A stretch of DNA of 64,000 nucleotides, taken from positions 56,296,001 to 56,360,000 of the forward strand of contig CM097887.1 in the NCBI GenBank assembly GCA_044892525.1, in the 5' to 3' direction. The translations under genes and the position numbers were made by a program. The notes beneath the pieces were generated by a model. It was given only the letters and a program-made list of their open reading frames with translations, did not search any database and was not told the origin of the DNA. This document shows, in pieces, positions 11,501-59,250 of the stretch. The stretch comes from Schmidtea polychroa. Lineage: Eukaryota. Within the stretch, counting starts at the first letter, position 1. Every line of letters starts with the position of its first letter.

Positions 11501-13022
11501 TTGAACTGTCTATCATTCTAGATTTTATAAAAATTATCATTGATATCTTATTGTTCGGAATTATTTTACTTTCTAAATGTTTGTTTGTTGGTTATAAGGA
11601 GAAACTTAAATTTATTAAATGGACTCCTCTGCTGCCGCCCCGCCCCCTCAACAAGTAATTCATATAATTTATTTTCGGTCACAAATACAGGCTGTTGTTT
11701 CTATGGCAATAGGTCAATTTAAGTTCAGCCTAAAATAGGTCATATAGAAAATTTCATAATTAAATCTAAGTGATTTCTAATTTTTATTCATATTTAAAAT
11801 TTAAGAATATGTATGTCACGTGTGCAATTAAATAGGCCAATCAAATTAATGCAATTATCAAGAATGATACGTTCATTGATACGATTAACATATAAATTTA
11901 TATTTGCGAAATATTTATTAAAACACACAAAATTATGCCTTGAAAAGGAATATATCCCATTTAGTTTTTGCTATAAACCATTTTTGCAAATGTATTGAAA
12001 TATCTTGTAAAAGCAAATGAATTTGTAATATTTGTTGAATACTTGCTATTTATTATGTATTTATAACAGATATTAATAATTTATTAATGTTCCATCGTTT
12101 GATTTTGTTTCAAATCAATCATCAATTTGGAATTAAATTAATTATTAATTAAGTAATTTTCTATATTTAACATGAGATTAAAAACAGACTTCTCCGCTGC
12201 CAAACAAATGGTTCCACACGTATCGATCATATCATCCACTAAAATCGCAACGCGATCTCGCACATCTCCAACAAGAACCATACGATCAACTTCGTTGGCT
12301 TTCTTTCTTTCTTTGTGAATTAAAGCAAAATCAACATTTAAATGATCAGCTATAGCTGTAACTCTAAGAAAATTTAAAAAGTTATATATTAATAAACTAT
12401 TAAGCCACCTTTTAGCACCCCCAGCATCAGGACTAACTATAGCACACCGATTCCAATCAGGTATATTATCTTTAATCCACCTAACAACAGCTGGTTCAGC
12501 ATAGAGATTATCTACAGGTATATCAAAAAATCCTTGAATTTGGCTAGCATGCAAATCCATTGTAATAATATGGTTAGCTCCCGCTACAGAAAGCATATTC
12601 GCAACTAATTTTGCTGAAATTGGAGCTCTAGATTTGTCCTAATTATATATATAATAATTAAAATTCCCTGAATTTCAGAACCTTTTTATCTTGTCTTGCA
12701 TATGGAAAACAGGGCATTACTGCTGTTATTCTACTAGCAGATGCATTTTTGCAAGCATTAATCATAATTAGCAGTTCCATCAAATTGTCATTAACCTCTC
12801 CACTTCCAGTCTGGATTATATAGACATCTTCTCCTCTGACTGACTCTCTGATTTCAACACTAAAATATGGTAAATAAAATATAAAAAATATAATTATTAC
12901 CATGTCTCTTCATTACTAAACTTTTTAGAAATTACGTCACCTAATTTTATTCCAATCCTTTCAGAAATCTTTTGAGCAAGACTGGTATTAGATGATCCAG
13001 CAAAAACTTTGATATTAGGCAT
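8559..13022 (-). CDS. PRPS1: Ribose-phosphate pyrophosphokinase, 6 exons: 13022-12901, 12859-12682, 12638-12409, 12363-12190, 8863-8704, 8651-8559
   Basis: The spliced product runs [11 protein letters not shown]...[25 protein letters not shown]...[11 protein letters not shown]...VSPDAGG...[10 protein letters not shown]...[21 protein letters not shown]. All introns are GT-AG and measure 41, 43, 45, 3326 and 52 nt. Confidence 0.95.
8946..9839 (-). mobile_element. Solo LTR (family S), inside PRPS intron 4
   Basis: Minus-strand TGTTGAGG start and ...AACA end, with a 4-bp TSD AAAT (8942-8945, 9840-9843). Homologous to 20748-21653, 36640-37497 and 59371-60365. Confidence 0.75.
9918..10936 (+). mobile_element. 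Penelope-like element fragment: RT flanked by inverted repeats
   Basis: [28 protein letters not shown] and YRKSTD are PLE-type RT motifs (10040-10504). Segment 9918-10000 is an inverted copy of 10830-10936. Confidence 0.75.
10872..10910 (+). ncRNA. Minimal type I hammerhead ribozyme (PLE-associated)
   Basis: CAC-CTGATGA-T-GACAG(GAAAA)CTGTC-GAAA-TATA-TC-GTG: complete catalytic core, 5-bp helix II, rudimentary palindromic helix III, AUC cleavage triplet. Confidence 0.7.
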
Positions 13023-39281: not shown

Positions 39282-40445
39282 TGTTGGATGATGAAGGTAG
39301 GCACATCACCACATTCAATCTCAACAAGTATTATAGGACTGGGCCCAGAAAATATAGAGTCAATGTGTGCGCTGAAGAGCGTAGGTAAATCAAATAGCTC
39401 AGCAGTCCAATTTCCCAACAATCCAATGCCTCAAACAATAGTAACAACCAACAATTCAATTCCTCAATTCAATTCCTCAAATGATAACAATAACTTTTGT
39501 GTGATAAATCGTATCAAACTTTATTAACATTGATCTGTGTTTTAACTATATTCATTTTTATTCGTGTATAAATTTTTAGTGTATTTTACTTTATTGACAT
39601 TATCAACACTCTGTGCTTTTAACTTTATTTATTTTTATTCATATTTGTATGTAAAATTTTGATTATATTTGATTGTAAATTTTATTGGTAAACACAAAAA
39701 ATAAATATATATATAANNNNNNNNNNNNNNNNNNNNNNNNNNNNNNNNNNNNNNNNNNNNNNNNNNNNNNNNNNNNNNNNNNNNNNNNNNNNNNNNNNNN
39801 NNNNNNNNNNNNNNNNNNNNNNNNNNNNNNNNNNNNNNNNNNNNNNNNNNNNNNNNNNNNNNNNNNNNNNNNNNNNNNNNNNNNNNNNNNNNNNNNNNNN
39901 NNNNNNNNNNNNNNNNNNNNNNNNNNNNNNNNNNNNNNNNNNNNNNNNNNTGGTAATAGTGGTGATAATAGTAATGGTAATAATAATGATAATTTAAGAA
40001 AGTATTAATTAATTAATATAAGTAATTAAAAATATTTGAAATTTAATATCAGTCTGACGAGACTGAAAGAATCTAAAAGAATCTAAAAATGAAATTTAAT
40101 TCAATATCAGTCTGACGAGACTGAATTAAATAACGTATGAAATTTAAAATAATTAATTTATGCAAAAATAATCTACTATTTTAGCGAAAAACTCTTATTC
40201 AAAGGTTAATCCTTAAAATAGCTCAATACCCGAATCAGAACAAAAAGATTCACATCTTGACTAAACATACTAAGGTACAGCACGCACTACACAACATATA
40301 ACAATACACATATATTTTTACAAGCATTTCAGAAGAAGAATTTGAGAAATAATTGTCAAAGCATTGCAAACTTTTATAGAATTGAAATTGCTTATATTTG
40401 GTAATTTTTGATTATAATAAATCTTTATACACATATTTGTTTTTG
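39282..40445 (+). repeat. 5' LTR (main part) of the large Gypsy element
   Basis: Nearly identical to 56228-57385: about 7 substitutions and a 37-bp deletion in the sequenced parts. The last 25 nt of the LTR reappear at 44449-44473 after the insertion and a gap. Confidence 0.85.
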
Positions 40446-40567
40446 CTGGGATATTGCCCGGTTGAATCCAACTATTTCGCTTTAGTCTAAGGGATGGGTG
40501 TCCATCCAGTTACGATAGAGATGACCGTGTCAACCCAGAGCAAAACCCCGCACAACCTACACTCCAA

Positions 40568-40705
40568 CATAGCACCCGTGAACCACTTCACGTTGGTAAT
40601 GTGCTATGCCGGCGAGACGCCAGTAAGCAGGTGAGCCCCTGCCTTAGGACTACTCCTTACTGAGGCCCCGACTTCCTTTCCCTGACGGCCGATGGAAGGA
40701 CTTAC
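40568..40705 (-). ncRNA. Conserved three-hairpin structured RNA, copy 2
   Basis: H1 CCTTCC/GGAAAGG. H2 CAGTAAG-GAGTAGTCCTAAGGCAGGGGCTC-ACCTG-CTTACTG. H3 CATAGCAC-ATTACCAA-CGTGAA/TTCACG-G-GTGCTATG. Confidence 0.75.
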
Positions 40706-40999
40706 GTCTGACCACATCCTCAAACCTCGGATTTCCTTGAATGGGATACAAATCGATCATTGCTTGTTGGACTTTGAAAACGTAACCCTATTCATAGAGT
40801 CTACACCGAGCTAATTGTCAGAATTACAATTAATAAAAGAAACAAGATTTTTAGTCAAAATGGATTTATTTTCACATCAATACAATACACAGAAAACTAT
40901 ATGCAGTATATACAATTTAATAGAAAACGGAGCACGAGATAGGTGGAGATATTCAGTTAGATAATTTTTATACAACAAGATTTTCCTACGGTGGGATTT

Positions 41000-41749
41000 T
41001 CATTTCTCCCATTCCGTGTCAGCTAGAAGTTCATCTAAATCGAAGAACTCGGAGGCGTTTTCCTCCCACGTTACACCGGCGGCGGAGATAATGCGCCCTG
41101 GGATCCCTACGGTTAGATCGACCACGGTGGGATTGCCGTTACGGTTGACTGGGGTGACGGTTGAGGGTGTGCTTTGTTTGACGACTGCCCGTTCTCGTTG
41201 TTTCCGTTTTCTTTCAGCCCGAGATAATTGTCGACGCTTGGGCTTAGAGGAGCTGTTAGTAGTAAGAGGCAGAGTAGAGGTGGAAGCGATGGATGGAATT
41301 GCTCTACTAGTGCCGGTAAAGATCAAGTCGGCTGGCTTGGGCGAGAGCTGAGTCTCTACACACCCTCGGCAAGACTTTTTAGGTGGAGGCGACGACTTTG
41401 AAGACGTGTCGTGGTGAGTTGGGAAGAGCTGGTCGGCTTCATTTATAGGGATCTTCACTATCTTCTTAGTGGTTGCTGCCTGTAAGTAAACTTTGTGCAG
41501 CGCCTCGGACTGCTCCTTTATCAGGCTTCTTTGGGCACGGCTTTCGGAGATCAAAGCGTCCCGACAATGTTCACTACGATAGAGCTTCTTCTGGGTCTCC
41601 TTCATCTGAGCGGGACTGAACCATGTCCCCTCTAGCTCGTCTATTTTCCTTTTGTATTTCCCAATTTGGGTCTGTAGGTCTTTGATTATTGCATTCTTGC
41701 CTGAACAAGAAAAGCAGGGTCTGAGAACGGTTTTTGAATTGGGTAACAT
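41000..41749 (-). CDS. Family X ORF A (249 aa)
   Basis: Intact homolog of 3135-3896. Both proteins end in a similar acidic-hydrophobic motif (FFDLDELLAD vs FPVDIDAMIAE). Confidence 0.75.
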   Translation of the reverse strand: MLPNSKTVLRPCFSCSGKNAIIKDLQTQIGKYKRKIDELEGTWFSPAQMKETQKKLYRSEHCRDALISESRAQRSLIKEQSEALHKVYLQAATTKKIVKIPINEADQLFPTHHDTSSKSSPPPKKSCRGCVETQLSPKPADLIFTGTSRAIPSIASTSTLPLTTNSSSKPKRRQLSRAERKRKQRERAVVKQSTPSTVTPVNRNGNPTVVDLTVGIPGRIISAAGVTWEENASEFFDLDELLADTEWEK

Positions 41750-42394
41750 ATCTGATGGCTATGAAGAAAAGATAGAACTAAATAAGATAAACCGAATTTA
41801 GGAAGTCCCCATCCCGATACAATTCATTATTAACTGTGTTCGATATTTCTACAGGAAGGACGGGGTTAGTTAGTAAGAGGAATTTCCCTACGCCATCGAT
41901 CTTTGTTCCCCCTGGGGTATTTATTTACAAGAAAACCAACCGGCAACATAAGACTTCGCCTAACGAAGGTAATGTATTATTATTAAAAATGACTATCACT
42001 TGTTTATGAGAAATTATTGGTAACAGAATTGTTCGTAAAAAGGATATATAGTATTGAAGAGCCCAAGTTAAAATATATGATTTATAAAAGGAAATTATTT
42101 ATTACTAAAATTTAGTAGATAAAATAGGTAAATCCATTTCAATTAATTATTAACTATAAATATTAAAATTTTTTGAACTTCCAATAATGCGGACTTGAAA
42201 CATTCAATCACCTACTGTCGATTACCTATGGCTAGTGTTGAATCTATTAATGACTAATGAGTTTATCTAGTAGTCGACAAACTAGGACACACCAGGCAAA
42301 CTGTCTCACGGAATTCGGTTGCGGTGAAATTACATACTGCTATCGATAAACTAGAAAACTCTAATGGATGTGACGTGTAGAAAGTTATTTTCGC

Positions 42395-42586
42395 ATGATT
42401 GCGCTTAATCATACTCGCACTACCGCTGCTGGGCATCCACATGTGGATCTTGTTACTATCACTTGCAATATGGGCGTTTGTGGGTATGTGCATGTGCTCA
42501 CATTCCATGGAAATGAAATCCGATTAGCATATTGGGCGGATTTTCAGATGCTACATCACACGGTGTTGGGTTGTCATCTCTCATGA
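42395..42586 (+). CDS. Family X small ORF B (63 aa)
   Basis: Homologous to 4588-4739 (GVxxYVxV...GxxIR). Confidence 0.45.
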   Translation: MIALNHTRTTAAGHPHVDLVTITCNMGVCGYVHVLTFHGNEIRLAYWADFQMLHHTVLGCHLS

Positions 42587-44475
42587 AAATTTGAAATAGA
42601 AAATTCTATCACATCCCTATGGTTGGATATAATTTGCTTCGTAAATGAACTGTTCAACTATTTCAAGACATATTTACCGATCTCAACTCGTGGATATCGA
42701 CCATCTCGGAATTTATGTAATTATGAATTTGCATGCACTGTCTCCTATTCAGGTATATCGAAATTCGTTTCTTTTTATATCATCAAATAAAAGGTATTTG
42801 TGTATTTTGTCTTGTTTTTTCGACGATATATTTCTGACAGCATTGTGTTCTATTGCATAGCTATTCTGCTGCCGAAATAAGGGTGCTAAACTAAATTCAT
42901 TAAGAAAATTGAGCGTAAGTGGTAATTTCGAGATGAGGAATGATCTACAGATAGATGATAATTACTCTACTAACGAAAATAACAGATCTAGACCTATGAT
43001 TGACTAAATTTTCATTTACGAGAAATCATAATTTGAAGAATTATTATGGATATGAAGACTTTAGATCCACTCAGTCACTGTGAATCACTGCTACTACCTT
43101 TGCTATAAATTAGATTTATTTCGCTCCTTCTTCCTAATTATTCTACATGCATTTTGAGTGACCTTCAGCGATTGGACCCGTGGAGAAGCCTTCACATTTC
43201 GGCCCAATCTAGCTGCGTGATTGAAGAACCTCATGTCCACCGGCTGAGCTCCCGAAGGCACCTCACACCATGACATGAAGTTCCTCAACTCCACGTTACT
43301 CGCATCGAATTTTAATATATATTATATTAACTCATAAAATTCTGAACTCATAAAATAAATCATAAAAATTACTGAAAGTTAGAATCATTTATTGTAAAGG
43401 TTTTCTAAAAATAAAATCATTCATCGATCTACATTACATTCATGCCTTCACTCATTTTAAAAAACTTTAAAGGAATCAGATGAAGAGAGTTAAACTAAAA
43501 CTTTAACTATGAATGTTTACCATTACTTTTAACTTTTAACTTTTCAAAAACTAAGTGGCAAAACAAATAAAAGCTCCTTACTATCGTGGCTGAATGTTGG
43601 GCTAAATCGAAATTTGATCTCCTTGAAATAGGTTGGCTTGAGTTCAGATGTTCCTTGAATGATTAGTACTACTGCTGCTGTATGAAATTCGGTTAGTTGT
43701 GATTGTTGTCGTTCTAGTTGTACCTGTGAAGTGCTTGGAATTAACGGTAAGTTTATGATTTTTGTGCTTGTTTATATATAATTTTTTTGATGTGTGCGGA
43801 CCAATCAAAATTGAGTACCGCTTGTTTCTGTTAATTTAATTTAGTTTTCTTGTTTTTTGCTTATTTTCTCTTATTTTCTTTTGTTTTTTCTTATATATTT
43901 TATTTATTTCTTTAATTTCCTTATTATTCATTAAATTTTCCTTACTTTATTCATTGTTCTATCGTCCTATTTTAATTTTTCTTATTTTTATTTTTTGTTT
44001 TAATTCTTGTTTTCTAATTCTTGTTTCTTTTATATTTTTTCCTATTTTATTCTTAATTTATTTATTTTATTTTTCTTTCCTTAACCTCTTGCTCATCTTA
44101 GTTTCCTAATATTTAACATTTTCATTTTTCGANNNNNNNNNNNNNNNNNNNNNNNNNNNNNNNNNNNNNNNNNNNNNNNNNNNNNNNNNNNNNNNNNNNN
44201 NNNNNNNNNNNNNNNNNNNNNNNNNNNNNNNNNNNNNNNNNNNNNNNNNNNNNNNNNNNNNNNNNNNNNNNNNNNNNNNNNNNNNNNNNNNNNNNNNNNN
44301 NNNNNNNNNNNNNNNNNNNNNNNNNNNNNNNNNNNNNNNNNNNNNNNNNNNNNNNNNNNNNNNNNNNNNNNNNNNNNNNNNNNNNNNNNNNNNNNNNNNN
44401 NNNNNNNNNNNNNNNNNNNNNNNNNNNNNNNNNNNNNNNNNNNNNNNNGTTCCCGAATATCGAGACCTCGACATT

Positions 44476-44493
44476 TGGTGCCGCGAACCGGGA
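44476..44493 (+). promoter_or_regulatory. Primer-binding site TGGTGCCGCGAACCGGGA
   Basis: Two nt after the LTR end (...CTCGACA). Complementary to a tRNA ending GGCACCA; from memory it is closest to metazoan tRNA-Phe, with tRNA-His as the alternative. Confidence 0.8.
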
Positions 44494-44715
44494 CTTTAAA
44501 ATCAATTATTGTTATTCACAATTTGGGGGATAGGAATTGAGATCAGAGGGTTATAGTATTTTATATTGGGAAAATATATTTATAATAATAAAATCATCAT
44601 TGATCAATTTTAAATAAATAAATTCAGTTTTTTTTATTTATCAAGCAACTCAAAAGATAAAATAGATAATCAACCCGAAATAATTTATAATTTAAGGAAT
44701 AGAATAGTCTATAGG

Positions 44716-46272
44716 ATGAACAATAATAATAACTTTATTAAAATTTTACCAGTAGAATCATATAGAGGAGAGCCCGAAAAGTTCGACGATTTTTTCACTG
44801 AGATCGCTCAGTATGCAGAAGCTTGTGGTTGGACACCTGATGAGTTAAAAATGAGAATCCCATTATATTTAAAAGGATATGCATTACAAGCATATAACAA
44901 TTTAGAGTGTAAAGGAAATAATTTTGATCAACTCGTAAGATATCTGAGAGCAGAAATAGTAATCGATAGTGATTTACAAAAGATAAATGTTCAAAAGTTT
45001 AGAAACAGATATCAAGGTACTAGAGAATCAGTTGGTGAATATGTATATACGATTACGGAGTTAGCGAAGAAGGCATTTGGTGCAGGCGAGCACACAGCAA
45101 AATTAATTGAGGATCAATTTTGGAACGGAATACAAAAATATTTATATAAAGCATTAATTATGGTAGAATATGGTAATTTAAATGAATTAGTTCATAAAGC
45201 TAAGCGTATAGAAGCAATACAACGAGATAGGTTTAGTTCGCATGTAGATGCAATGGAAATCCAAAAGCCCATAGAGGTAAAATCTGAGTTGGGTAAGTCA
45301 GATGACAACATCCCCTGGGAGGAGATGAAGCAACTATATTTGAACTTTGTAAAAAATAGACGAAGGGTAAGCCCGAGTCCGGATAGAAGTCAATCACCTG
45401 AAAACAGGAGGAGATTTGATAATGTGAGAAACAGAAATTTCGAGAGTAGAAACAATAGAAACACTTTGGATAGAGATAATCGATATGAATATAATAGAAA
45501 TAATTATACGAGAGATAATCGAGTCGAATTTAGTAGAAATAATTTGAGAAATAATAAATATGATAGAAGTAATAGATATGATAAGAGAGATAATACAAAT
45601 GATTTGAGACGTAGACAGACAAGTCCATATAGACAGAATTCATATAGAGAAAGGCGAGGAAGCCCTTATAACAATGATGGCAGAGATAAAGTAAATTTTA
45701 ATGGACAGATTAAATGTTATAATTGCCAAAAATATGGTCACTTAGCTAAAGTATGTAATAATGCGCGAAGCGAATCGCCTAATAAAGTGAGATTTCAAAA
45801 TGAGCCTGAGATAAAACAGATTAATAGTGCTAAGTTGATATCAGCTAATGATGAAATAAACAGTTTGAGAGAAGAATTAAAAGAATTTAAAACTCAATAT
45901 GGGAGACTTATTGAGAGAAAGTTAGAAATGTCATTAAATGAGTTTCAGTGTTTTACCAATGATGTAGATATAGATAATGATGAGTTTCGTGAAGCAAGAG
46001 AAGCGGATGAAAAATTTCTTGCAGAAGCAAATAGATGTAAAGAATTAAAAGAGGAATTGAAAGAGACATTAGAAAAATGGCCTTATGATGATAATGAGAC
46101 ATTACGTATAATAAATAGAGTTCAAGTCGAAGGAATTGACTTAGAATATTTGAGAAATTTGATACCAATAATGGTAAAGAGGCAAAATATGACTAGAGTA
46201 TTTGAATTAGAAATAGAATTGAAAGAAATGATAAAATGTTATGGTGAGTTTGTGAGAAAAAATCAGATTTGA
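44716..46272 (+). CDS. gag: Gag: capsid-like N-terminus, R/N-rich linker, CCHC zinc knuckle, extra helical C-terminus
   Basis: Retrotransposon gag pattern (YRGEP...GW...YLKGYA...RYQGTRESVGEY...FWNGI) and CYNCQKYGHLAKVC at 45715-45756. Confidence 0.9.
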   Translation: MNNNNNFIKILPVESYRGEPEKFDDFFTEIAQYAEACGWTPDELKMRIPLYLKGYALQAYNNLECKGNNFDQLVRYLRAEIVIDSDLQKINVQKFRNRYQGTRESVGEYVYTITELAKKAFGAGEHTAKLIEDQFWNGIQKYLYKALIMVEYGNLNELVHKAKRIEAIQRDRFSSHVDAMEIQKPIEVKSELGKSDDNIPWEEMKQLYLNFVKNRRRVSPSPDRSQSPENRRRFDNVRNRNFESRNNRNTLDRDNRYEYNRNNYTRDNRVEFSRNNLRNNKYDRSNRYDKRDNTNDLRRRQTSPYRQNSYRERRGSPYNNDGRDKVNFNGQIKCYNCQKYGHLAKVCNNARSESPNKVRFQNEPEIKQINSAKLISANDEINSLREELKEFKTQYGRLIERKLEMSLNEFQCFTNDVDIDNDEFREAREADEKFLAEANRCKELKEELKETLEKWPYDDNETLRIINRVQVEGIDLEYLRNLIPIMVKRQNMTRVFELEIELKEMIKCYGEFVRKNQI

Positions 46273-46512
46273 ATATAACTATTGAGGCAAAGGACCTTTT
46301 GAGAACACTTATGCGTAGTACAGGGGTACATGTGTGCACAAAAGTGAATAAAGTGAAACAGATGGCCAGAGGTAATTGGCCCGAAATATTGGGAGATAAC
46401 GATAAAGTGAAACTGTATTTCAACGGGGTAGAAATGATGAATAACGAATATATAATCGACTATGGGGTAAACGTTATCGATAACAATGTTATTTCTGCCG
46501 TAATAGAAAGGC
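46263..46512 (+). CDS. Ubiquitin-like domain
   Basis: TKVNKVKQMA...DKVKLYFNGVEMMNNEYIIDYGV...VISAVIE aligns by eye to ubiquitin TIENVKAKI...[23 protein letters not shown]...TLHLVLR. Confidence 0.6.
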
Positions 46513-46721
46513 AAGAAAGTAAGGAAATTGATACACCAACCCCATCAGTAGAATTGAGTATAAACGACGAAAATGACTATGACAAACTATTTAGATTGTG
46601 GGATGCTTCTTCAGGAGGGGCAACGAAGTCACCAACAGCTAGCGATGAAATCTTTAAACCTATTGACACAAAATAGGATAATTTACATGAGACAATAGAA
46701 AAAATTGCGACACAAGCAAAT

Positions 46722-47369
46722 ATGCAGGATGCAGAGACGATGAAACGAGGTAGAGGAAGGCCTCGAAAATCTGAAATAGCCGAAAAGTCAGATGACAGAA
46801 AGGCAGCAGAGCGTTTAAGAGATATTGCAAATAATATGAGACAAGAAGTTCCAAAAAATCAGGATAATGACAAAGATATACAAATGATAACGGAGTTAGT
46901 TAAAGCAATGAATGTGAGACGGTTTCCGGAAGCAAAACCATCAGCGTTAATAGAAAATATAGTTAAAAAGATTAAATTAATGGAAAAAGAGATTAGAGAA
47001 TCGAGTGCAGAGGAAGCGAATGAAGAGACAGTGTTAAAGATATTATTTACAACAGGAGTCAATCGGGATAAAGTGATTACGGCGATGGCATATTTAATAG
47101 CAAGATACAAAAAACTTTTGCGAATGAATCCAAAGAATCAAATAGAAAATATTGCTAAAATGATATATCATAAACTAAAGGTAGATGCTATGCCATGGAT
47201 AAAATTAAAGGGAGGATGGAAAATACTGTATGATGAGAGCCTAATTGAAAGTGCTAAGGAAAGCGTAGAAGATAATATTAATGTAGAAATAGATGATACG
47301 GAGGAGACAGTAAAAAACCTAGTAAATAAAACAACTATGAGACCAAGTCAAAAAGAAAGAAAGTCGACA
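46722..47369 (+). CDS. AT-hook plus Bcl-2-like domain
   Basis: AT-hook KRGRGRPRK; BH3-like RLRDIANNM; BH1-like ILFTTGVNRDKVIT; BH2 PWIKLKGGWK, in the correct order and spacing. Confidence 0.7.
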
Positions 47370-49230
47370 ATGTCAATAGTAATTATAGTAATAACGTTAT
47401 TGTTAGATCTGATAAAAGCAAATAATGCAATCATAGCGTATGACTGTTAGAATCCTAAGTGGGGACAGAAATATTCATTATTAGATGTAGAAAATTGCCC
47501 AGAGGCTAATCCAACAAAATTAATTGTTGCAGATCCAAAGATTTTTCACATATATCAAGAGTCTGACTTCATTCACACTGAAGCAGGAGAATGTATCGTT
47601 AAATATTCAGAGGAAAGTTTTGTGTGCAATAAAATAGCAAGAACAATATAAACTCCAACATGGGCACCAGAAGCGATAATAATAGCACCAATCGAATGTG
47701 AAAATGCATTTAAAACAAAAAAGATAAAAACGCCGGATGGATTTGAGTTAAATGCTCAGGTAGGAGCACGAGTAAGGCAATTAGTAAATGTCGTTGGATG
47801 GTCATCAACAGGAGGATATTGTGAAGGAGGAACGTATAAAATATGGGGGCATGTGGCAGACAATATTGTAGTGAGACGACAATATTATATTGAATTAAGG
47901 AAATTCAAGGCGTCATTTGATAGTTCATCAAAGAAAATGATGACACATAAGTTCTGCACATTAGATGAGACAAGCTGTGATACAGGCGAGTCAATGATCA
48001 TATACAAAGTAAACAAATACGAATGCCATCTAACTAAACTAAAGACACTGAAATTCAGAACGATACGAGGTAAACAGTTCACGGATGTAGAATCCAAGAA
48101 CATTAAAGACCAAAAACGACGTGCAACGATAATTCAAGAGAGATACACCAACGATATACATGTCAGATTCTGAAACTGAAGCGATGAGATTTGTGGGAAA
48201 AGGTGAAAGTATTAAATGTGGAAAAGCAGTCATACAAACAAATTATGAAGGAATTTATATCAGTGGAAGTAAAATTAAAGAGGCAAAATCGAAAATAGAC
48301 AAATTCGATGACAAGCTAGCGTCATATTTTAATAATAAAATCGACTATTTTTATCATCATCAGTTAGTACAATTGGACAAAGTATACCAAGCAACTATTG
48401 CGAACGATTGTAAACTCAATAGAGAAATATTAAGAACAAAGATGGCGGTTGCAGTCACAAACCCAGATTTAATGGCACCAATTTTATTTGCAGAGAAAGG
48501 GACATTTGCAAGAGTTGTCGCTGAAGTGATACAAACATTTCAGTGTAAAGCGGTTAGTGTATCTTTAGCAACGAATAATAAATGTACAAACGAAAAACCA
48601 GTAGTGTATAAAGGAGAAACTGTATATCTCCAACCAATAACAAGGATATTAACAGATAAAGACTATGTTCCGAGAAAAATTGATAAATGTACAAATCTAT
48701 TAGATCCGTTATACAAAATAAATGATGATATGTGGATTACAATGTCAGATAGAAAGGAAGGGACTAAACCACAAAAACTAGAATTAACTGAACTTGAGAA
48801 AAAGTTAGAATTTCAGGAAGTCAACGAAATGGATAACAATGGGATGTATACGAGAGAGGCGATAGAGAGCGCCAGAAAACATATGTTATTTCCTCATGAA
48901 AAAGAAAAAGTTCTTTCTATTATGGTAAACAAAATTATCGAGAATAGTTATGGAGGGAATTCCAACTTTGATGTATTATTATCAAAAGAGCACTTCAAGA
49001 AAGTTGTGTATAGAGTATTATACAGCATATGGGGATATTTTGCGATTCTCGGAAATACGTTTGCCACTATATTGGGTATATATTATACAGTAGCACTATT
49101 GAAAATGATTTGTTCATCATTAGTTTTGTTAAGACAACTGAGACAAGTTTTTGGTAATTCATATAAAATGATGGCATGTTTATGTCCATTCATAGCCAAA
49201 TATTTGATCACTGCGAAGCACGACAAAGAA
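47370..49230 (+). pseudogene. env: Envelope glycoprotein, class III (herpes gB / chuvirus G-like); two in-frame stops and one frameshift
   Basis: Signal peptide MSIVIIVITLLLDLIKANNA followed by IIAYDC, then GGYCEGGTY, DCKLNREIL, FQCKAV...CTNEKPVVYKGETVYLQPITRIL...C and a C-terminal TM hairpin. Stops at 47448 and 47649; frameshift at about 48140. Confidence 0.75.
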
Positions 49231-49479
49231 ATCAAACGGATGAAAAGTCGAAGGGAAGAGGGTGAAATAATGATCACCAATGAGAAAGATGACGAGGCAA
49301 ACAAATCAGAAAATATTGAGCAACCACATATTGGGTTATATGATAATCAAAGAGAACAATTGACAGAATTGAGAAATAATATTGAAATTAGAATCCCAAG
49401 TGAAAATGGTAATTGTCATTGTGTTCCAAGGAAAACTTATGGATGTTACGGGTTAGAACTTGACGATATATTAGAAGGG

Positions 49480-52400
49480 TTAAATGAAGCAAGGCCTAAA
49501 TTACAAATAGTGATAAATAATAAGATAATAAAGGCATTATGTGACACAGGAGCAGCAGCTTCTATGATTCGTGAAGATCAGTTAACCGAAAATCAAAAGA
49601 AAAATATCGTGAGCACAAGAGATAGAGTAATTTTATTATCATCACATAACATACCATTAAAAGGCGATATCGAATTAACAGTCCACTTTTCAGATCAAGT
49701 GGTTGAACATGTCTTCGAGGTAGTAGCAGAATGTAAATGCGGGTGTGTCCTTGAGATGGACATACTCAAAAAGTTAAAAAACTGTGTAATCGATCTAACG
49801 GATAGTACAGTTAAACGGAAAGCAATATATCAAGACGCAAGATTTACTGAGGTAATTGCATTAGAGACATTCGAACTAGATTATCAAAGTGATCATATAA
49901 TTCCAGTAAAAGTTAATGTTAAAAGTGAGGACACTTTCATTTTCGAGCCTGAAACGGCAATATCACGAAATCATAATGTAATGTTAACAGACGAGTGTGT
50001 AGTTCCAAATAATGGGATAATTCCAATAAGAATCGCGAATTACGAAAGGAATAAAGTAAAAATTCATAAAGGTACAAAATTGGGAAAGTTGTTCAAAGGT
50101 GAATTAGAGCAAACATTTGAAGTATGTGAGATGTCGATAACGAGTGATGTCGGTGAAGGAATGGTCGAACAGAGTAGAGCGAATAATATTAAATTTTATG
50201 ATAAAATTAAAATAAATAATAATTATCTAAACGAAACACAACAACTACAACTACAAATATTACTTGACGAATATAGTGATGTTTTTGCAAGACACGAATT
50301 TGATTTAGGAGATACTGATATTATTAAACATGTAATCGATACGGGGAATGCTAGACCAATAAAACAGAGACCCTATAGTGTACCATATAAAATGAGGGAG
50401 GAAATTAAACGACAAATTAAAGAATTAAAAGAGGCAGGCGTAATAAAACAAAGTTTTTCACAATGGGCATCACCTATTGTGCCAGTTAGAAAGAAAGACG
50501 GGGAAATTCGAATGTGCATTGATTATCGTAAATTAAATGATGTAACAGTAAAAGATTCTTACCCATTCCCGAGAGCACAAGAACAATATGATAAACTTAG
50601 GGATACTAAGTATTTCACAGTAATAGATGCAAATAAAGGTTACATGCAAATTCAAATGGAAGAGGGGGATGCGGAAAAAACTGCTTTTGTAATTGAGGAT
50701 GGTTTATATGAATATACAAGACTACCGTTTGGGTTAACTAATGCGCCAGCAACATTTCAACGTTTAATGAATACAGTATTAGTAGATGTACAGCATTGCG
50801 CAGTATATATGGATGACATATTAAAATCGTCAAAAACATTCGAGGAACACTTAAAAGACATAGCAAATGTATTACAAAGATTGAGAAAAGCGAGAATTAA
50901 AATAAAACCCACTAAATGTAAATGGGCAGAACCTTCAGCATTATTTTTAAGACATATAGTCACAGTAGATGGTATAATACCTAACCCCGATAAAATTGAA
51001 GTAGTTAAAAAATTTCCAGTTCCAAAAACATTACAACAAGTACAGGGGTTTTTAGGTCTCACAGGATATTATCGTAAATTCATACAAGATTATGCAAAAA
51101 TAGCAGCACCACTAATTGAATTAACAAAAGGAGTCAAAACAAAGGGAGAGAGTAAGAGAGTGTTAATAGTACAGGAGATTAACGATAAAATTAACAAGCC
51201 ACAAAAGAAATGGAAAGATGAACATCAAAAAGCTTTTGATCAACTAGAAGAAAAATTAATAACAGCACCGATACTAAGATACCCAGACTTTAAAAAACAG
51301 TTTATTGTCATGACAGACGCCAGCCGGAAGGCTGTAGGGGCAGTCTTAGGACAAGAAGAGGAAAAGGGTAAAGATTATGTAATAGCTTATGCAAGCAAAA
51401 CATTAAAAGGAGCACAGATTAGGTACTCAACAATCGAGAAAGAATGTTATGCTATAGTTTTTGCATTAAAACAATTTAAACCATACATATATGGAACTGA
51501 AGGAGTAATTAGAACAGACCATAAACCATTAGAAGGGTTATGGAAACATAAAGATACATCCAGCAGACTGTTAAAATGGGCAATGAAAATACAAGACATG
51601 CACGTAAAGATTGTATACAAACCAGGCAGAATAAACAGGAATGCAGATGCATTATCACGAATTCCAGAGTTGGGAGCACTAGAAGTTTTTGCATTAGTAA
51701 CTGAAAAACCAATAGAAATATATGAGGAACAAATGAAAGACCCAGAACTCTTCAAAATAAGAGAGGAAATAAAAAAGGGAACTAACCAAAAGTATAAAAT
51801 CTGTAAGAAGTTAATTGTTATTGAGGATTTTAGCGGTAAACAATTAATAGTAGTACCACAAAGATTAAGACAAATTCTTCTAATACAGTATCACGATGGT
51901 GCTCTAGGAGGTCATTTATCAAGTAGGAAAACAGCAAGCAGATTGATGCAAAAATATTACTGGGACGATTTGAAAAAGGATGTTAAGAGATGGTGTAATG
52001 CATGCACAATATGCGCAACTAGAAAAAATACAGGAACAAAGACTAAAGCACCTTTACATCCAATCCCAGCTACAACATCACCAATGGAACTGTGCGCAAT
52101 GGATTTTTTGTGTAAACTACCCACAACAATTAATGGGAATAAGCACATACTAGTTTTTAGCGATTATTTTACCAAATGGGCAGATGCATTTCCCACTAAA
52201 GATGAAACAGCAGAAACAGTAGCCAAATTACTTGTAGAAAAAATAATCTTTAAAATCGGTACACCGAGGAAATTATTAACAGATAAAGGGAAAAACTTCA
52301 TGAGTGAAACTATAAAAAGAGTAGCTAACATATTTAACATGCATAAAATCAACACAACAGCATACCACCCTCAAACTGATGGTTTAGTGGAAAGATTCAA

Positions 52401-52956
52401 TGGGACATTTCTAAGTAGATTAGCCGTGTTTGTGGGAAAAAACCAAAATGATTGGGATGAATACGTTAATCAATGCACATATATTCATAATATCACACCA
52501 AATGAGACAACGGGATATTCACCATATTTTTTAATGTTCTTAAGAGAGCCTGCGACACCGATTGATACAATTTTTGAGCCTCGAGTATCACAATATTTAG
52601 ATGCACCAGATTATGTAACATTAATGCAAGAGAGATTTCAAGAGGTATATAAGATCTCAAATTTAAAAGTTAAATTTAGACAAGAACAGTATAAGGCAGA
52701 TTACGATAAAAATAGCAAACCTCATAATTTTAAAGTGGGAGATAAGGTTAGACTTATGTCTCCACAAGTAGGTAAAGGCAAAACAACTAAATTAGCAAGA
52801 CCATTTAAAGGACCATACGAGATAGTAAAAGTAGTACATGAAAACCTGCATTTACAAAAACATAAAAATGAGGATTCGATAATAGTACATGCTAATAGAT
52901 GCAAATTAGCAGAAACAGAGTTAGTAGAAAAACCACCTCACAAATATGGATTATGA
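49480..52956 (+). CDS. pol: Pol (PR, dUTPase-like linker, RT, RNase H, integrase), in frame with the env C-terminus in ORF 48160-52956
   Basis: ALCDTGA; RMCIDYRKLN, PFGLTNAP and YMDD (50806-50817); TDAS/EKE/TDH/ADALSR; HHCC and D-D35-E (MDF, TDKG, GLVERFN). Confidence 0.95.
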   Translation, partial: LNEARPKLQIVINNKIIKALCDTGAAASMIREDQLTENQKKNIVSTRDRVILLSSHNIPLKGDIELTVHFSDQVVEHVFEVVAECKCGCVLEMDILKKLKNCVIDLTDSTVKRKAIYQDARFTEVIALETFELDYQSDHIIPVKVNVKSEDTFIFEPETAISRNHNVMLTDECVVPNNGIIPIRIANYERNKVKIHKGTKLGKLFKGELEQTFEVCEMSITSDVGEGMVEQSRANNIKFYDKIKINNNYLNETQQLQLQILLDEYSDVFARHEFDLGDTDIIKHVIDTGNARPIKQRPYSVPYKMREEIKRQIKELKEAGVIKQSFSQWASPIVPVRKKDGEIRMCIDYRKLNDVTVKDSYPFPRAQEQYDKLRDTKYFTVIDANKGYMQIQMEEGDAEKTAFVIEDGLYEYTRLPFGLTNAPATFQRLMNTVLVDVQHCAVYMDDILKSSKTFEEHLKDIANVLQRLRKARIKIKPTKCKWAEPSALFLRHIVTVDGIIPNPDKIEVVKKFPVPKTLQQVQGFLGLTGYYRKFIQDYAKIAAPLIELTKGVKTKGESKRVLIVQEINDKINKPQKKWKDEHQKAFDQLEEKLITAPILRYPDFKKQFIVMTDASRKAVGAVLGQEEEKGKDYVIAYASKTLKGAQIRYSTIEKECYAIVFALKQFKPYIYGTEGVIRTDHKPLEGLWKHKDTSSRLLKWAMKIQDMHVKIVYKPGRINRNADALSRIPELGALEVFALVTEKPIEIYEEQMKDPELFKIREEIKKGTNQKYKICKKLIVIEDFSGKQLIVVPQRLRQILLIQYHDGALGGHLSSRKTASRLMQKYYWDDLKKDVKRWCNACTICATRKNTGTKTKAPLHPIPATTSPMELCAMDFLCKLPTTINGNKHILVFSDYFTKWADAFPTKDETAETVAKLLVEKIIFKIGTPRKLLTDKGKNFMSETIKRVANIFNMHKINTTAYHPQTDGLVERFNGTFLSRLAVFVGKNQNDWDEYVNQCTYIHNITPNETTGYSPYFLMFLREPATPIDTIFEPRVSQYLDAPDYVTLMQERFQEVYKISNLKVKFRQEQYKADYDKNSKPHNFKVGDKVRLMSPQVGKGKTTKLARPFKGPYEIVKVVHENLHLQKHKNEDSIIVHANRCKLAETELVEKPPHKYGL

Positions 52957-52971
52957 TCACAAAAAGCACTG

Positions 52972-53802
52972 ATGATGGCAGCGACATTTTTAACAATTAT
53001 AGGGTTGTGTAGATCAACTGAAGTAGAAAATGAGAACATACACTCAGTAGAATACATGGCTGAAGATATTTTAATCAACGTTTCACCGGATAAGATTAAA
53101 GCATATAACTTAAATAAATCACCAATAAGAGACTTGTATCTGGAAACTAGGGACAATATACCCAAACTTATGAAAAAAATTGAAAATAGATCAACTAATG
53201 AATTTGAAAGAGGAGATAATGTTGAATTCAGAGATCTACAACCCAACACTAATTACACACTTTGTGCACAATGGAACACATTAGTTGACACATCACAGAT
53301 AAGGTGCAAAAGGATAAAAACTACTAAAATAAACAGACTTAGAATAAAAAAACCAATAGGGAAAAAGATATCAACAACCAGAAAAACAACTACTGTAGAT
53401 TCAATATCCACACATCCTATATCACAAACAATAACGAATATATATAGGAAAACGACATTTAAAACGGTTAGACAAATATATAAAAAATTAATAATGAAAA
53501 ATCCAAGACAGTCTGATAAGAAACTGATAAAATTACCTACAGGAAAACCGATAGTTATAAATAACTGGAATGAATTACAAGTCTTTCAAAAGAAAGAAAG
53601 TAAACCACAATGGCCTTTTTATGTAATAGCTACAAGTGTAGTATCATTCGCGATTTTAGCAATTGTCACTAGTGTACAAGTTTATAAAAAGTACAAGAGG
53701 AAAAGGCAGCAGTATCGGCACCGACTGGTCAAAGAAGCACCAGGGCATTTTCACTTAGACAAATATATCCCTGGACAATATACTCTGTCCACACTTGTAT
53801 AA
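52972..53802 (+). CDS. Type I membrane protein with an FN3-like segment, in the same frame as pol
   Basis: Signal-like MMAATFLTIIGLCRS, FN3-like VEFRDLQPNTNYTLCAQ, a Thr/Lys-rich stalk, TM WPFYVIATSVVSFAILAIVTSVQVY, then KKYKRKR. Confidence 0.6.
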   Translation: MMAATFLTIIGLCRSTEVENENIHSVEYMAEDILINVSPDKIKAYNLNKSPIRDLYLETRDNIPKLMKKIENRSTNEFERGDNVEFRDLQPNTNYTLCAQWNTLVDTSQIRCKRIKTTKINRLRIKKPIGKKISTTRKTTTVDSISTHPISQTITNIYRKTTFKTVRQIYKKLIMKNPRQSDKKLIKLPTGKPIVINNWNELQVFQKKESKPQWPFYVIATSVVSFAILAIVTSVQVYKKYKRKRQQYRHRLVKEAPGHFHLDKYIPGQYTLSTLV

Positions 53803-54082
53803 TAACTTAAAAAATTTTAATTACGTAAATTGGTCAATGATATATAATAAAAGTATATATATTAATATTTATATAACTGCGTATAAGGTTAAACCTCAAA
53901 TGCGCAACAAGCATAAATATTTATTGTTTGTTTTTAGAATAATAATAAGAAACCTAGTCAGTCAATCGAATCAACCTAATCAAATCGATCTTCCAATAAA
54001 CCAAAGTCAATTCAGTCAATCGAATCAACCCAATAAAAACAATCATCATTCCTACCAAATCAATCTTCAAACAAACAAATCA

Positions 54083-54791
54083 ATGCACCCACATACGTCA
54101 GTTTACATGTATTCTCAAAGAACCAAAGCCCAGCGCAATCCAGAAACTCACAAAATAAAGAAATACGTACCGATGATACATAAACACTACAATAGTTTTT
54201 ATAAAAATCTACAAAATAAGATCAGCACAGACGGCACTCCCATTACTATCAGAAGCTTCCCTAACCAAGTCTGCATTCCAAATGACATGAAAATTGAAAT
54301 CGAAGAAAGGGAACTCCATCTCATCAAATTTAATGAAGCCCGAAGAGTAAAACTCAAAGACCTCATTGGAACATTTGATCAGTTTCCAAATGCAGAAGAA
54401 GCAGTAAGGGAAGGAAAAAAGGTACCACACAGATTACTGTTTCACATCACCAAGACAGAAGTATCAATCTGTCAAGATAGGACACCTTTAATTACCACCA
54501 GCAATTGCACAATAATGTTTAAAACAGTCAAAAACGATCGGAGCGTACCAAATGAATACAATCAACTAATAGTGCAGATGAATAACCTACCATGCGTAAT
54601 CGCAATCGAAATATTGTACATTCCTACCATCCCAAATCCTTTCAGAGAATTAGAAATCATCAAATATACAATTCAAATCCCAAGAGATGCAATTAACAGG
54701 AGAATATCATTCACCCATCAAGACCTATCAATAACAGAACGACATCAGCGTCTCATGTTCGTGGAGGCAAGGCTGATAATGGATATTAACA
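54083..54791 (+). CDS. Element-borne ORF of unknown function; runs into a gap
   Basis: Open frame of more than 230 codons with element-like codon usage. No motif recognised. The track start at 53795 crosses low-complexity AT-rich sequence. Confidence 0.5.
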
Positions 54792-55151
54792 NNNNNNNNN
54801 NNNNNNNNNNNNNNNNNNNNNNNNNNNNNNNNNNNNNNNNNNNNNNNNNNNNNNNNNNNNNNNNNNNNNNNNNNNNNNNNNNNNNNNNNNNNNNNNNNNN
54901 NNNNNNNNNNNNNNNNNNNNNNNNNNNNNNNNNNNNNNNNNNNNNNNNNNNNNNNNNNNNNNNNNNNNNNNNNNNNNNNNNNNNNNNNNNNNNNNNNNNN
55001 NNNNNNNNNNNNNNNNNNNNNNNNNNNNNNNNNNNNNNNNNNNNNNNNNNNNNNNNNNNNNNNNNNNNNNNNNNNNNNNNNNNNNNNNNNNNNNNNNNNN
55101 NNNNNNNNNNNNNNNNNNNNNNNNNNNNNNNNNNNNNNNNNNNNNNNNNTA

Positions 55152-55580
55152 GTATACGACAAGAAAATCACACCTTGGACAAAAGTACTGCACTATTACC
55201 CTGAAAAAACGGAATCCAATAAAGAAAATATCATTGGTAATGAGGACGAATATCATGCACTCATCGAGATTCAAAAATTATTATGCGGGAAAATAATAGT
55301 GGGATATGAAATCATAGATAAATTAAAAGCCCTAACCTTGTATCTAGACAATGTGATGGGGGTAAAAGAAATGGCAAATGATGCATTCTTGACATCATTT
55401 GTAAAGAACGTAGCTCCTCACAAAATCAAGCTGTCAAACCTGGCCTACCAAGTTATCAAACACCACAAAAGGTGGTACAAAGACAAGGCGATAAACGCAA
55501 ATATTGAAAAGACCTGAACCCATCTCGGCGAGACACACAACAGCGATCCTGAAAGTCATCTATGACATAGTCGAAACACA
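55152..55580 (+). pseudogene. REXO4/ISG20-like DEDDh exonuclease domain, catalytically degenerate
   Basis: VYDKKITPWTKVLHY...IQKLLCGKIIVGYEIIDKLKAL...KLSNLAYQVI, then after a frame change IYDIVETQWE. This parallels REXO4 VYDKYVKP...AEMLKGRILVGHALHNDLKVL...SLRLLSEKIL...LYVMVKKEWE as I recall it. Confidence 0.6.
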
Positions 55581-56334
55581 GTGGGAAGAAGTAGTAAAAT
55601 GGAATGTAGCATCAGAATACCCACTGTCAGGAAGTACAGCAGCAGAAAATCCACAATCAACAGAGACAAGAGAAGATGATCTGTTCATGGAAGAGGAGGA
55701 CATGTATATCGAACCCTCGCAATTCGAGCTAAAATATCGCAGAGATGGAACTCGAAGAACTTTCGAAAATGAGTTAGAAGATAGCGACGATGACCTCATA
55801 TTCATCTCAGAAGAAAGGAGACAGGAACCTGTGCAAACAGTTAAACTCGAACCACGGGAACCACAAAGTCAATCAATGATAACAGAATGCGATTTAGACT
55901 CAGACGAACAGTACTTCTCACTAGAAGAACAAAACAGTGGAGAAGAAGAAGATGCAATGAGTGTCGATGAATCGGAAGAAGAACTGGGGCCTGAACCAGA
56001 TATAAACATAGAGGAGCCTCATTTTATAATAGAAAAAGAAAAGCAACAGATCACAGAAAAGGAATTGACTCGTCATTTCGGGAGACGAATAAACGAGGGC
56101 GATATCCTAAACATAGCATTGGGCAAAGGGTTCAACCGAACAAAAATGCTCATCCAGGATTGCGAGATAGAAATAGTAAAAAGTATTAGAGATAATGCGG
56201 ACATTATCTTAACGGCCCAGGGAGGAATGTTGGATGATGAAGGTAGGCACATCACCACATTCAATCTCAACAAGTATTATAGGACTGGGCCCAGAAAATA
56301 TAGAGTCAATGTGTGCGCTGAAGAGCGTAGGTAA
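55504..56334 (+). CDS. Acidic ORF with an unknown C-terminal domain, ending inside the 3' LTR
   Basis: 276-aa track ORF with D/E-rich tracts. It crosses the PPT and terminates 107 nt into the LTR. Confidence 0.55.
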   Translation: MKRPEPISARHTTAILKVIYDIVETQWEEVVKWNVASEYPLSGSTAAENPQSTETREDDLFMEEEDMYIEPSQFELKYRRDGTRRTFENELEDSDDDLIFISEERRQEPVQTVKLEPREPQSQSMITECDLDSDEQYFSLEEQNSGEEEDAMSVDESEEELGPEPDINIEEPHFIIEKEKQQITEKELTRHFGRRINEGDILNIALGKGFNRTKMLIQDCEIEIVKSIRDNADIILTAQGGMLDDEGRHITTFNLNKYYRTGPRKYRVNVCAEERR

Positions 56335-57456
56335 ATCAAATAGCTCAGCAGTCCAATTTCCCAACAATCCAATGCCTCAAACAATAGTAACAACCAACAA
56401 TTCAATTCCTCAATTCAATTCCTCAAATGATAACAATAACTTTTGTGTGATAAATCGTATCAAACTTTATTAACATTGATCTGTGTTTTAACTATATTCA
56501 TTTTTATTCGTGTATAAATTTTTAGTGTATTTTACTTTATTGACATTATCAACACTCTGTGCTTTTAACTTTATTTATTTTTATTCATATTTGTATGTAA
56601 AATTTTGATTATATTTGATTGTAAATTTTATTGGTAAACACAAAAAATAAATATATATATATAANNNNNNNNNNNNNNNNNNNNNNNNNNNNNNNNNNNN
56701 NNNNNNNNNNNNNNNNNNNNNNNNNNNNNNNNNNNNNNNNNNNNNNNNNNNNNNNNNNNNNNNNNNNNNNNNNNNNNNNNNNNNNNNNNNNNNNNNNNNN
56801 NNNNNNNNNNNNNNNNNNNNNNNNNNNNNNNNNNNNNNNNNNNNNNNNNNNNNNNNTGGTAATAGTGGTGATAATAGTAATGGTAATAATAATGATAATT
56901 TAAGAAAGTATTAATTAATTAATATAAGTAATTAAAAATATTTGAAATTTAATGTCAGTCTGACGAGACTGAAAGAATCTAAAAGAATCTAAAAATGAAA
57001 TTTAATTCAATATCAGTCTGACGAGACTGAATTAAATAACGTATGAAATTTAAAATAATTAATTTATGCAAAAATAATCTACTATATAAACGACTCACAA
57101 AGTCAGTGTAGTGGCCCAAAATTTTAGCGAAAAACTCTTATTCAAAGGTTAATCCTTAGAATAACTCAATACCCGAATCAGAACAAAAAGATTCACATCT
57201 TGACTAAACATACTAAGGTACAGCACGCACTACACAACATAAAACAATACACATATATTTTTACAAGCATTTCAGAAGAAGAATTTGAGAAATAATTGTC
57301 AAAGCATTGCAAAGTCTTATAGACTTGAAATTGCTTATATTTGGTAATTTTTGATTATAATAAATCTTTATACACATATTTGTTTTGTTTTGATATATAT
57401 ATATATATATATAGGAACCAGTAAGTTGAGTGTTCCCGAATATCGAGACCTCAACA
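56228..57456 (+). repeat. 3' LTR of the large Gypsy element
   Basis: TGTTGGA start directly after the PPT and ...CTCAACA end. TATATAAA at 57083, TCAGT at 57103 and AATAAA at about 57359. Confidence 0.85.
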
Positions 57457-57749
57457 CCTAATAAATTCCTGTAAAGTGTGATTCCTATCTGATATTCCGT
57501 CTATATTTGTATATGTCTATGTCTATGTGTATATGTACGTGTATGTGTGTAATATCAAATGTGATTGCCAGGACTCAATGTGTTATACGATTGTAAAATT
57601 AATTGAGGTGGGTAATGTGAAACGATTCAAAAAATACAAATTAATTAAAAATAAATAAATAATTTAGTAGCTATGTGGGAAAACCTAGCTAATGGAAAAT
57701 CCAGGATGTCTCAAAATCAAGGAATAATTACATAAAAAAATTTAAAAAT

Positions 57750-59250
57750 TGTTGGGCTGAAACAGAGAACTGAGAGTTTGTTTTAATCGATCGAAAATAC
57801 CTAACACAAAAACCGCAAAGTTGAAAAAATTTATGATCAAGGTTTAATATAAAATAAGTCACATCACACATTAAGAATCAATAAACCCCTTATAATAGAA
57901 TAAAGAGATAAATAAATTTAACAGAAAAATTCAACACTTAAAAAATTTTCGATAGAAAAATAATAAAATGTAAAATAGAATTATTTGAAAATTATTTAAA
58001 CGATATAAAAATTAAATCGTCTAAATAATAAAATTAGTTAGCATTAGGTAAATTGTATAATTTATAGAATTAAATGGTTAGAATTATGTAACTTATTAAA
58101 TTTAAAGAATAAAAGTGTTTAAATTAATAGAAATTAAAATAACTCGAATTATTTAAATTATAAAATTTATAAAATTAAATTATTACAATTAATAAAAAAT
58201 TAAATAATTAATTAATGTATGCAAAATTAATTCAAAATTTCTCGCACTCTGATTGGATAGAGTGGCAGAGAATGCATGAAGGCGCATTCAAAATCAGTAT
58301 AAATACTGATTACAAATTGTTTGAAAAAACTTTTTTTCAACATCACAACTTAATTTGCAGACAGTAAAGCTCTCAGTTTTCGATTTTATGCCAACGTGGA
58401 TTTGGTAATTTATTTTTTATTGTTATTGTAATTTTTACGAAATGATTTAATTTAATAAATTTTACATGCAATTAATTTTTTAGTTAAATTTTCTTTTGTT
58501 GCCCTTTTTAATTGTTTAATTTCATTTAGTTTTAAGTTTTAAATAATAATTTTTATTCGGTTCAACTTTTGCGTTAATTAATTTTGAATAATAGTTATAG
58601 TGGAACTGGAATCCAGTAGGCCACAGCATTAAGGGACACTAGTTGTTCCTATTTGCGAGTAGGTCGGCTGGCTTTTCAGATTCACACGGATTGATCAGAC
58701 CATAACGAGGAGGCTTCTCCCCTGGTCCGTCTCTGTAAATATTTTCTAGTCGGAAATAGGTTAGGACTAAGAATACAGGCAGATCCCTGCTCAAATTTTT
58801 TGATGGACAATTTAAGTATTATGACAAGTGTGGATTAACTTGGAAATAAGGGCCGATCCATGCTCAAATTTTTTGCGAGATAGGTTAAATATTCATAAAT
58901 ATCAAGAAAAATACCTAGCAACCTTTATTAATAGAAAAATAAGGGCGCATCCCTGCACAAAATTTTGAAAGGAAACAATAGAAAACATCTAGAAATGAGG
59001 ACCATAGCCGAATGAGATAGAAAAGTAGAAATAGGAAATGATCGATGACGTAAGACCTTCTATCGGCCGTCTAGAACCCGAAGAGAAAATACAATGGGGA
59101 GTAGTTTTAGCAATAGAGCTCACCTGTTCATTGTTTTTTCGCCTTTGTGTACAGTACCAACATGGTCGTCACCATGGGTACACAAACGGTTTAAAGTACA
59201 ATAGTCATGGAGGTGCGTAGGAAAGAGTCGAGTAAATACCTATGATTACC
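57750..59250 (+). mobile_element. Family X copy 3: short, apparently non-coding derivative
   Basis: TGTTGGGCTGAAAC start, A-rich tract, CTGATTGG (~58251), TATAAATA, unit end CGATTTTATGCCAACG (58396), and the hairpin module at 59050-59186. No ORF A. Confidence 0.6.
59050..59186 (+). ncRNA. Conserved three-hairpin structured RNA, copy 3
   Basis: GTAAGACCTTCTA leader. H2 CAATGGG-GAGTAGT...AGCTC-ACCTG-TTCATTG. H3 TTTGTGTAC-AGTACCAA-CATGG/CCATG-G-GTACACAAA. Confidence 0.75.

Follow-up and report, generated by a model that had tools for sequence, protein, structure and literature searches.

A Ty3/gypsy-like planarian element family with a predicted class III envelope in frame between Gag and Pol

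RESULTS

A decayed copy of a Gag-Env-Pol element

The window (the whole stretch of Schmidtea polychroa DNA that was analyzed, 64,000 nucleotides) probably contains a decayed member of a young, high-copy Ty3/gypsy family. In the open copies of this family, Gag, a class III envelope (Env), and Pol share one frame, and Pol is likely carried as the cytoplasmic tail of Env, from which the protease (PR) of the element likely releases it. The data directly support the single frame with its succession of domains, a class III fold in the Env model, purifying selection on env, and conservation of an open linker between Env and PR; the placement of Pol on the cytoplasmic tail of Env is the best reading that we infer.

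The whole element lies at 39282-57456 and has LTRs, a primer-binding-site-like stretch, and a purine tract (Table 1). Its 5' LTR, interrupted by another insertion, is a direct repeat of 56228-57386 (434 nt at 100% identity and 530 nt at 91.7% with a gap). As the original prediction had claimed, the C-terminal part of env runs without a stop into PR, reverse transcriptase (RT), RNase H (RH), and integrase (IN); a stop-free frame of 1,607 aa at 48133-52956 contained, in this order, the Pfam domains Monjiviricetes_fusion (E = 1.7e-67), RVP, RVT_1, RT_RNaseH, Integrase_H2C2, and rve. The N-terminal part of env was found in upstream pieces at 47370-48173 (Pfam E = 1.6e-6 for 47652-48170). The ORF originally delimited here, 48160-52956, was right in its first Met (48160) and its open frame, but neither of its ends is a natural gene limit. 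The window copy carries stops at 46674, 47448, 47649, and 52954, and its reading frame shifts near both 46250-46270 and 48135-48170; its gag ends at 46272 through a copy-specific frameshift, and its env ectodomain is interrupted by the stops at 47448 and 47649 and by the second frameshift. Among the 40 loci compared, the stops and the 48135-48170 frameshift were present only in the window copy and a near-identical twin (G000:C3:8.09 Mb), and both ends of the ORF are thus accidents of the copy. In open copies, the frame begins at Gag and runs beyond IN into a second membrane protein.

The twin (G000:C3:8088080-8104658, loci L059, L039, and L060) matched window positions 41275-58054 at 99.6-100% identity, with all lesions and the right flank included; it arose either by segmental duplication in recent times or as a duplicate made in the assembly. 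The damage to the window copy and the near-identical twin elsewhere on the contig could suggest that the in-frame fusion itself arose by chance in this copy or was created by the assembly. However, the fusion was seen in dozens of independently inserted copies whose flanks differ, and it recurs in a second family and among database proteins; an accident is already refuted by these, and we give it practically no weight.

Other features of the window were also recorded. The insertion in the 5' LTR (40444-44400) carries a minus-strand ORF of 252 aa (41000-41758) that resembles, by eye, the ORF at 3135-3896, and the window therefore appears to hold a second copy of another mobile element. Exon pieces at 12138-12638 on the minus strand likely belong to a host gene and presumably resemble ribose-phosphate pyrophosphokinase. 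No tRNA gene was found within the 64-kb window.

Table 1. Parts of the window copy and the evidence for each (window coordinates)
Feature	Position	Strand	Evidence or remark
5' LTR (TGT...ACA)	39282..44473	+	Split by unrelated insertion, 40444 to about 44400
Primer-binding-site-like stretch (TGG...)	44476..44493	+	Identical letters after 5' LTR in 10/10 copies
gag, CCHC knuckle at 45715-45756	44716..46272	+	zf-CCHC, E = 3.3e-4
SUMO/ubiquitin-like domain, weak	46278..46514	+	PF11976, E = 0.006; E = 0.0028 in open copy
Bcl-2-like domain	46806..47219	+	PF00452, E = 1e-6, 29.6 bits vs cut-off 31.4
env internal signal peptide, predicted	47370..47429	+	Hydropathy peak 1.96 immediately 5' of IIAYDC motif
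Class III (gB/chuvirus G-like) env ectodomain, predicted, 14 Cys	47430..49020	+	PF24664, E = 8.9e-89 (open copy); model; fold matches
Membrane-proximal region and single TM helix, predicted	49021..49125	+	Hydropathy
Amphipathic Cys-Pro helix, likely cytosolic, membrane-associated	49159..49215	+	Hydropathy 1.01-1.58, 1-2 charged residues
env tail/linker to protease	49216..49536	+	Sequence variable, frame open
pol: protease (DTG, 49537-49554), RT (YMDD, 50806), RNase H, integrase with GPY/F motif	49537..52953	+	
Post-integrase membrane protein (signal, FN3-like ectodomain, TM, basic tail)	52957..53802	+	
Second ORF, broken and partly N, weak ISG20-like exonuclease stretch	53837..56334	+	
3' LTR, purine tract 5' of LTR	56228..57456	+	Direct repeat

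A young and abundant family

We compared 20 sister copies, chosen mostly for long frames. Eight of these had a single frame of 3,051-3,090 aa that encodes Gag, a SUMO-like domain, a Bcl-2-like domain, Env, PR, RT, RH, IN, and the second membrane protein, in an element of about 14 kb. The PF11976 (SUMO-like) scores were under the Pfam cut-off, and the Bcl-2-like domain had a dN/dS of 0.14. Between PR and RT, where Burro elements (see Discussion) have a dUTPase-like domain, no dUTPase was matched at E up to 5 in a search with Pfam alone. When the genome was searched with an env-to-PR query, 112 matches were obtained, 84 of which span the whole query; 68 of these 84 were stop-free, and the other 16 had a single stop, which was TGA, TAA, or TAG. 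Copy counts from this search are lower bounds, 105 of 2,293 candidates having been scored. The LTR pairs were 99.7-100% identical in eight of nine copies and 97.9% identical in one. Target duplications of 4 bp were detected in all four copies in which both flanks were readable, and the flanks of the window copy agree at three of four bases. The family is young and abundant.

The hallmarks of Ty3/gypsy elements were present, namely LTRs, the primer-binding-site-like stretch, the purine tract, a short target-site duplication, the order PR-RT-RH-IN, a gypsy-type RNase H, and a GPY/F tail on IN. From these domains and the closeness to Smed_errantivirus_3 described below, the family would be placed in Ty3/gypsy (Metaviridae). 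A second ORF was open over 699-777 aa in 5 of 10 copies and matched the ISG20 exonuclease (1wlj) weakly (phmmer E = 5.7e-4; window 53837-56334; L056:189-2342). Some of its acidic catalytic positions look replaced by eye, so the exonuclease may be inactive. At L023/L044 (G000:C2:60.02-60.03 Mb), a primer-binding site and gag lie directly 3' of a 3' LTR, indicating a tandem element with a shared LTR.

Conservation of the Env-protease fusion

Env had been predicted to lie between Gag and PR, fused in frame to Pol, and both the order and the fusion were kept in open copies, in the second family, and in all eight long database relatives. The stretch from the TM helix to PR was unbroken in the 20 best loci, 18 by a motif test and 2 by the tblastn frame. 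No conserved stop separated env from PR in these loci, and the single stops among the env-to-PR matches were of all three kinds. These counts are biased toward intact copies, as the searches order their hits by score.

Other elements with env before PR were also sought and were found both in the genome and among database proteins. The second family (G000, loci L061-L090; 38% Env identity) is a high-copy family with env before the protease and open frames of up to 3,334-3,361 aa. Its stretch from TM to PR was open in 25 of 30 loci, the exceptions being one stop, two frame changes between env and PR, and two loci without a protease motif. In the eight long database relatives (36-41% identity), env is followed by an aspartic protease within one protein, as it is in 8 of 11 further long hits. 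The long hits P0017, P0023, and P0024 and the shorter hits P0010-P0013 contain env without a downstream protease and may be fragments. In the database relatives P0002, P0003, P0004, P0006, P0015, P0018, and P0022, at least two aspartic-protease-like domains follow env, some of them also lying after IN.

We then compared evolutionary constraint along the frame. Relative to a 78%-identical subfamily, dN/dS was 0.02 for the env ectodomain, 0.02 for the TM region, 0.06 for RT/RH, and 0.03 for IN; env is under strong purifying selection. The Env tail and linker had 53% amino acid identity to the sister subfamily, compared with 88% for the ectodomain, and the frame nevertheless stays open. Three candidate slippery heptamers were detected in 47300-49600, none of them at the Env-PR linker.

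A Gag-Pol fusion is the usual retroviral means of packaging Pol. Such a fusion would be restored if splicing or shortening gave an RNA without env, with the full frame left for Env only, and one AG with a pyrimidine-rich upstream stretch does lie within the linker, at 49429. This is, however, a single weak acceptor candidate in a linker that is 66% purine, and the linker remains open in frame despite its divergence in sequence, with the fusion kept in eight of eight long relatives. Joints were also inspected in contigs of four runs, three of them RNA only by guess: none of the 15 joints inspected, out of 29, skipped env, and as all 15 came from the fourth run, which is of uncertain kind, they speak neither for nor against splicing. 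We regard an env-skipping RNA as a rather improbable source of Pol and favor translation of Pol behind Env in the full frame.

Class III fold of Env

The original prediction had assigned Env to class III (gB/chuvirus G-like), and this was borne out by the match to PF24664, which Env of an open copy covers over nearly its whole length, by a structural model, and by fold matches to gB and chu-like G. The ectodomain model, built from a natural open copy with a 120-sequence alignment, had a pLDDT of 92.3, a pTM of 0.76, and a central helix of 48 residues; prediction from the single sequence gave a pLDDT of 33. All 38 PDB fold matches listed for the model were herpesvirus gB (best E = 1.8e-13, TM 0.47), and the best BFVD matches were chu-like virus G (E = 1.9e-38, TMq up to 0.77). 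At the sequence level, phmmer with the ectodomain gave no meaningful match in the PDB, and a profile search against the PDB recovered gB weakly (best E = 0.0018). The predicted class III assignment stands. The ectodomain of the open copy contains no N-glycosylation sequon in 521 residues, and relatives have one or two; such a lack is odd for a luminal protein and counts against a luminal ectodomain.

It is also conceivable that Env is a passenger, i.e., that the element replicates intracellularly and that the envelope is conserved but is a non-infectious or host-useful module. In its favor, the element is known here from its sequence alone, and a Burro1 element reportedly helps planarian stem cells to survive through an IAP region (Lee et al. 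2026, as related in a passage of PMC13465017). Against this, the constraint on Env matches that on RT and IN (dN/dS 0.02), its 14 Cys are retained in nine of nine long proteins, and its model is that of a complete class III ectodomain. We consider a passenger role very unlikely.

Membrane topology and a proposed assembly route

Topology was called from hydropathy only. Four segments of the open polyprotein are likely to enter the membrane, namely an internal signal before IAYDC, the Env TM, a signal after IN, and a final TM, and an additional hydrophobic peak lies inside the protease fold. All nine long proteins compared had a hydrophobic stretch ahead of Env, and in eight of them it peaked at 1.5 or above. 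The hydropathy of the Env TM was 1.79-2.42 in all 14 proteins scored, and that of the stretch after it was 1.01-1.58, with one or two charged residues and a proline. The latter is likely an amphipathic cytosolic helix. A TM hairpin, as originally predicted, was rejected on hydropathy, with one strong helix followed by this weaker stretch, and on topology parity, as it would leave Pol luminal and reverse the orientation of the signal after IN. The positive-inside rule was uninformative, with K/R on both sides of the Env TM.

The signal and TM after IN were found in six of the eight Pol-bearing relatives; P0006 is without them, and P0026 ends within IN. The post-integrase protein matched fn3 weakly (E = 0.12), and a short FN3-like motif was recognized by eye in five of seven regions. 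BLAST among the seven regions gave a strong link only between P0002 and P0004. A search among longer proteins found no homologue, which is weak evidence. The dN/dS of this protein was 0.30-0.38, compared with 0.02-0.04 for env. With its architecture kept and its sequence fast-changing, it is a candidate second entry protein.

Under the favored reading, one polyprotein would pass through the ER membrane four times. An internal signal peptide would direct the Env ectodomain to the ER lumen, and signal peptidase would cut before IAYDC, leaving Gag-SUMO-Bcl-2 anchored on the cytosolic face. The single Env TM helix would bring the chain back to the cytosolic side, where PR-RT-RH-IN would lie and where PR would release Pol from the Env tail by a putative cleavage. 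A second internal signal after IN would export the small surface protein, which would be terminated by its own TM. The four crossings would alternate, with Gag and Pol remaining cytosolic. Gag, Env, and Pol would initially be made at 1:1:1, and an excess of any one would require turnover or extra Gag RNA.

With Env placed between Gag and Pol, its release by signal peptidase would prevent the packaging of Pol as Gag-Pol. A tentative extension, which we think possible but would not bet on, is that the polymerase is packaged via the envelope and not via Gag: signal peptidase would sever Gag from Env-Pol, and Pol would be tethered between the Env tail and the fast-evolving post-integrase surface protein, the latter acting as the attachment partner of the gB-like fusogen. 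If true, the elements would assemble by such a route and enter cells with two glycoproteins. Neither envelope-borne packaging of Pol nor such an entry system was found in the literature searched, the scope of which stopped short of Grohme 2018, Sacco 2022, and Lee 2026.

DISCUSSION

The layout described here was implied to be novel in the original prediction. It has in fact been published for planarian Burro elements (PMC6431247, Burro section) and for GAG-ENV-POL elements with gB-type env (PMC13524379, main text), so the gene order adds little as a discovery. What remains of interest is how Pol is packaged and what role the post-integrase membrane protein plays. With a compact, young, high-copy planarian family, the Pol-packaging question can be put to the test on endogenous RNA and protein.

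Chuvirus (Monjiviricetes) G and herpesvirus gB share PF24664 and the fold with the planarian Env, at identities of about 20% and 12%, respectively. In those viruses the glycoprotein is a stand-alone gene product with a short tail, whereas the planarian Env is an internal part of a retroelement polyprotein. The nematode NERVs belong to a different phylum from the planarian element. They are reportedly elements with a continuous gag-env-pro-pol ORF. Their ENV and POL are described as being in flipped order (Sacco et al. 2022, as cited in the main text of PMC13524379).

Among planarian elements, Burro was presented by Arkhipova and Yushenova (2019) as "the first case" of an in-frame env between gag and pol (PMC6431247, Burro section). 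According to that section, Burro and GYPSM1 are giant gypsy-like LTR retrotransposons of >30 kb, with a 4,873-5,140-aa ORF for a polyprotein of Gag, a SUMO-like domain (PF11976), a BCL2-like domain, Env, and PR-RT-RH-IN; the Env matches mononegavirus glycoproteins, and MATH, BIR, ankyrin, or midasin-like domains are carried. The in-frame order Gag-SUMO-like-BCL2-like-Env-Pol is also found here, with the SUMO-like and Bcl-2 scores under the Pfam cut-offs. By contrast, the window family is about 14 kb with an ORF of ~3,050 aa and has no Pfam matches to MATH, BIR, ankyrin, or midasin-like cargo, and the Burro section makes no mention of a post-integrase membrane protein. The window element works like Burro and is not classed as Burro.

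Elements of the order GAG-ENV-POL whose env is of the gB type were reported by Chary and Hayashi (2026) from nematodes, bryozoans, and flatworms, and six of them come from Schmidtea mediterranea (PMC13524379, main text). In that text, a word search for polyprotein, Bcl-2, fibronectin, exonuclease, splic, and frameshift gave no hits. The features of their GAG-ENV-POL HSV/gB-type errantiviruses, namely a gB-type class III env, env between gag and pol, and intact multi-copy elements, were also found here, the first of them by prediction. Smed_errantivirus_3 is the closest comparison: PMC13524379 lists an HSV/gB-type env and an AlphaFold structure for it and gives GAG-ENV-POL as the order in flatworm errantiviruses, and its env row there shares 205 of 246 residues (83%, counted by eye) with the open copy P0001. 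Three copies are given for S. mediterranea in the same source, compared with at least 84 full-length env matches here. The in-frame Gag-Env-Pol layout is thus real and already published for planarian elements, and the window family is a compact new member.
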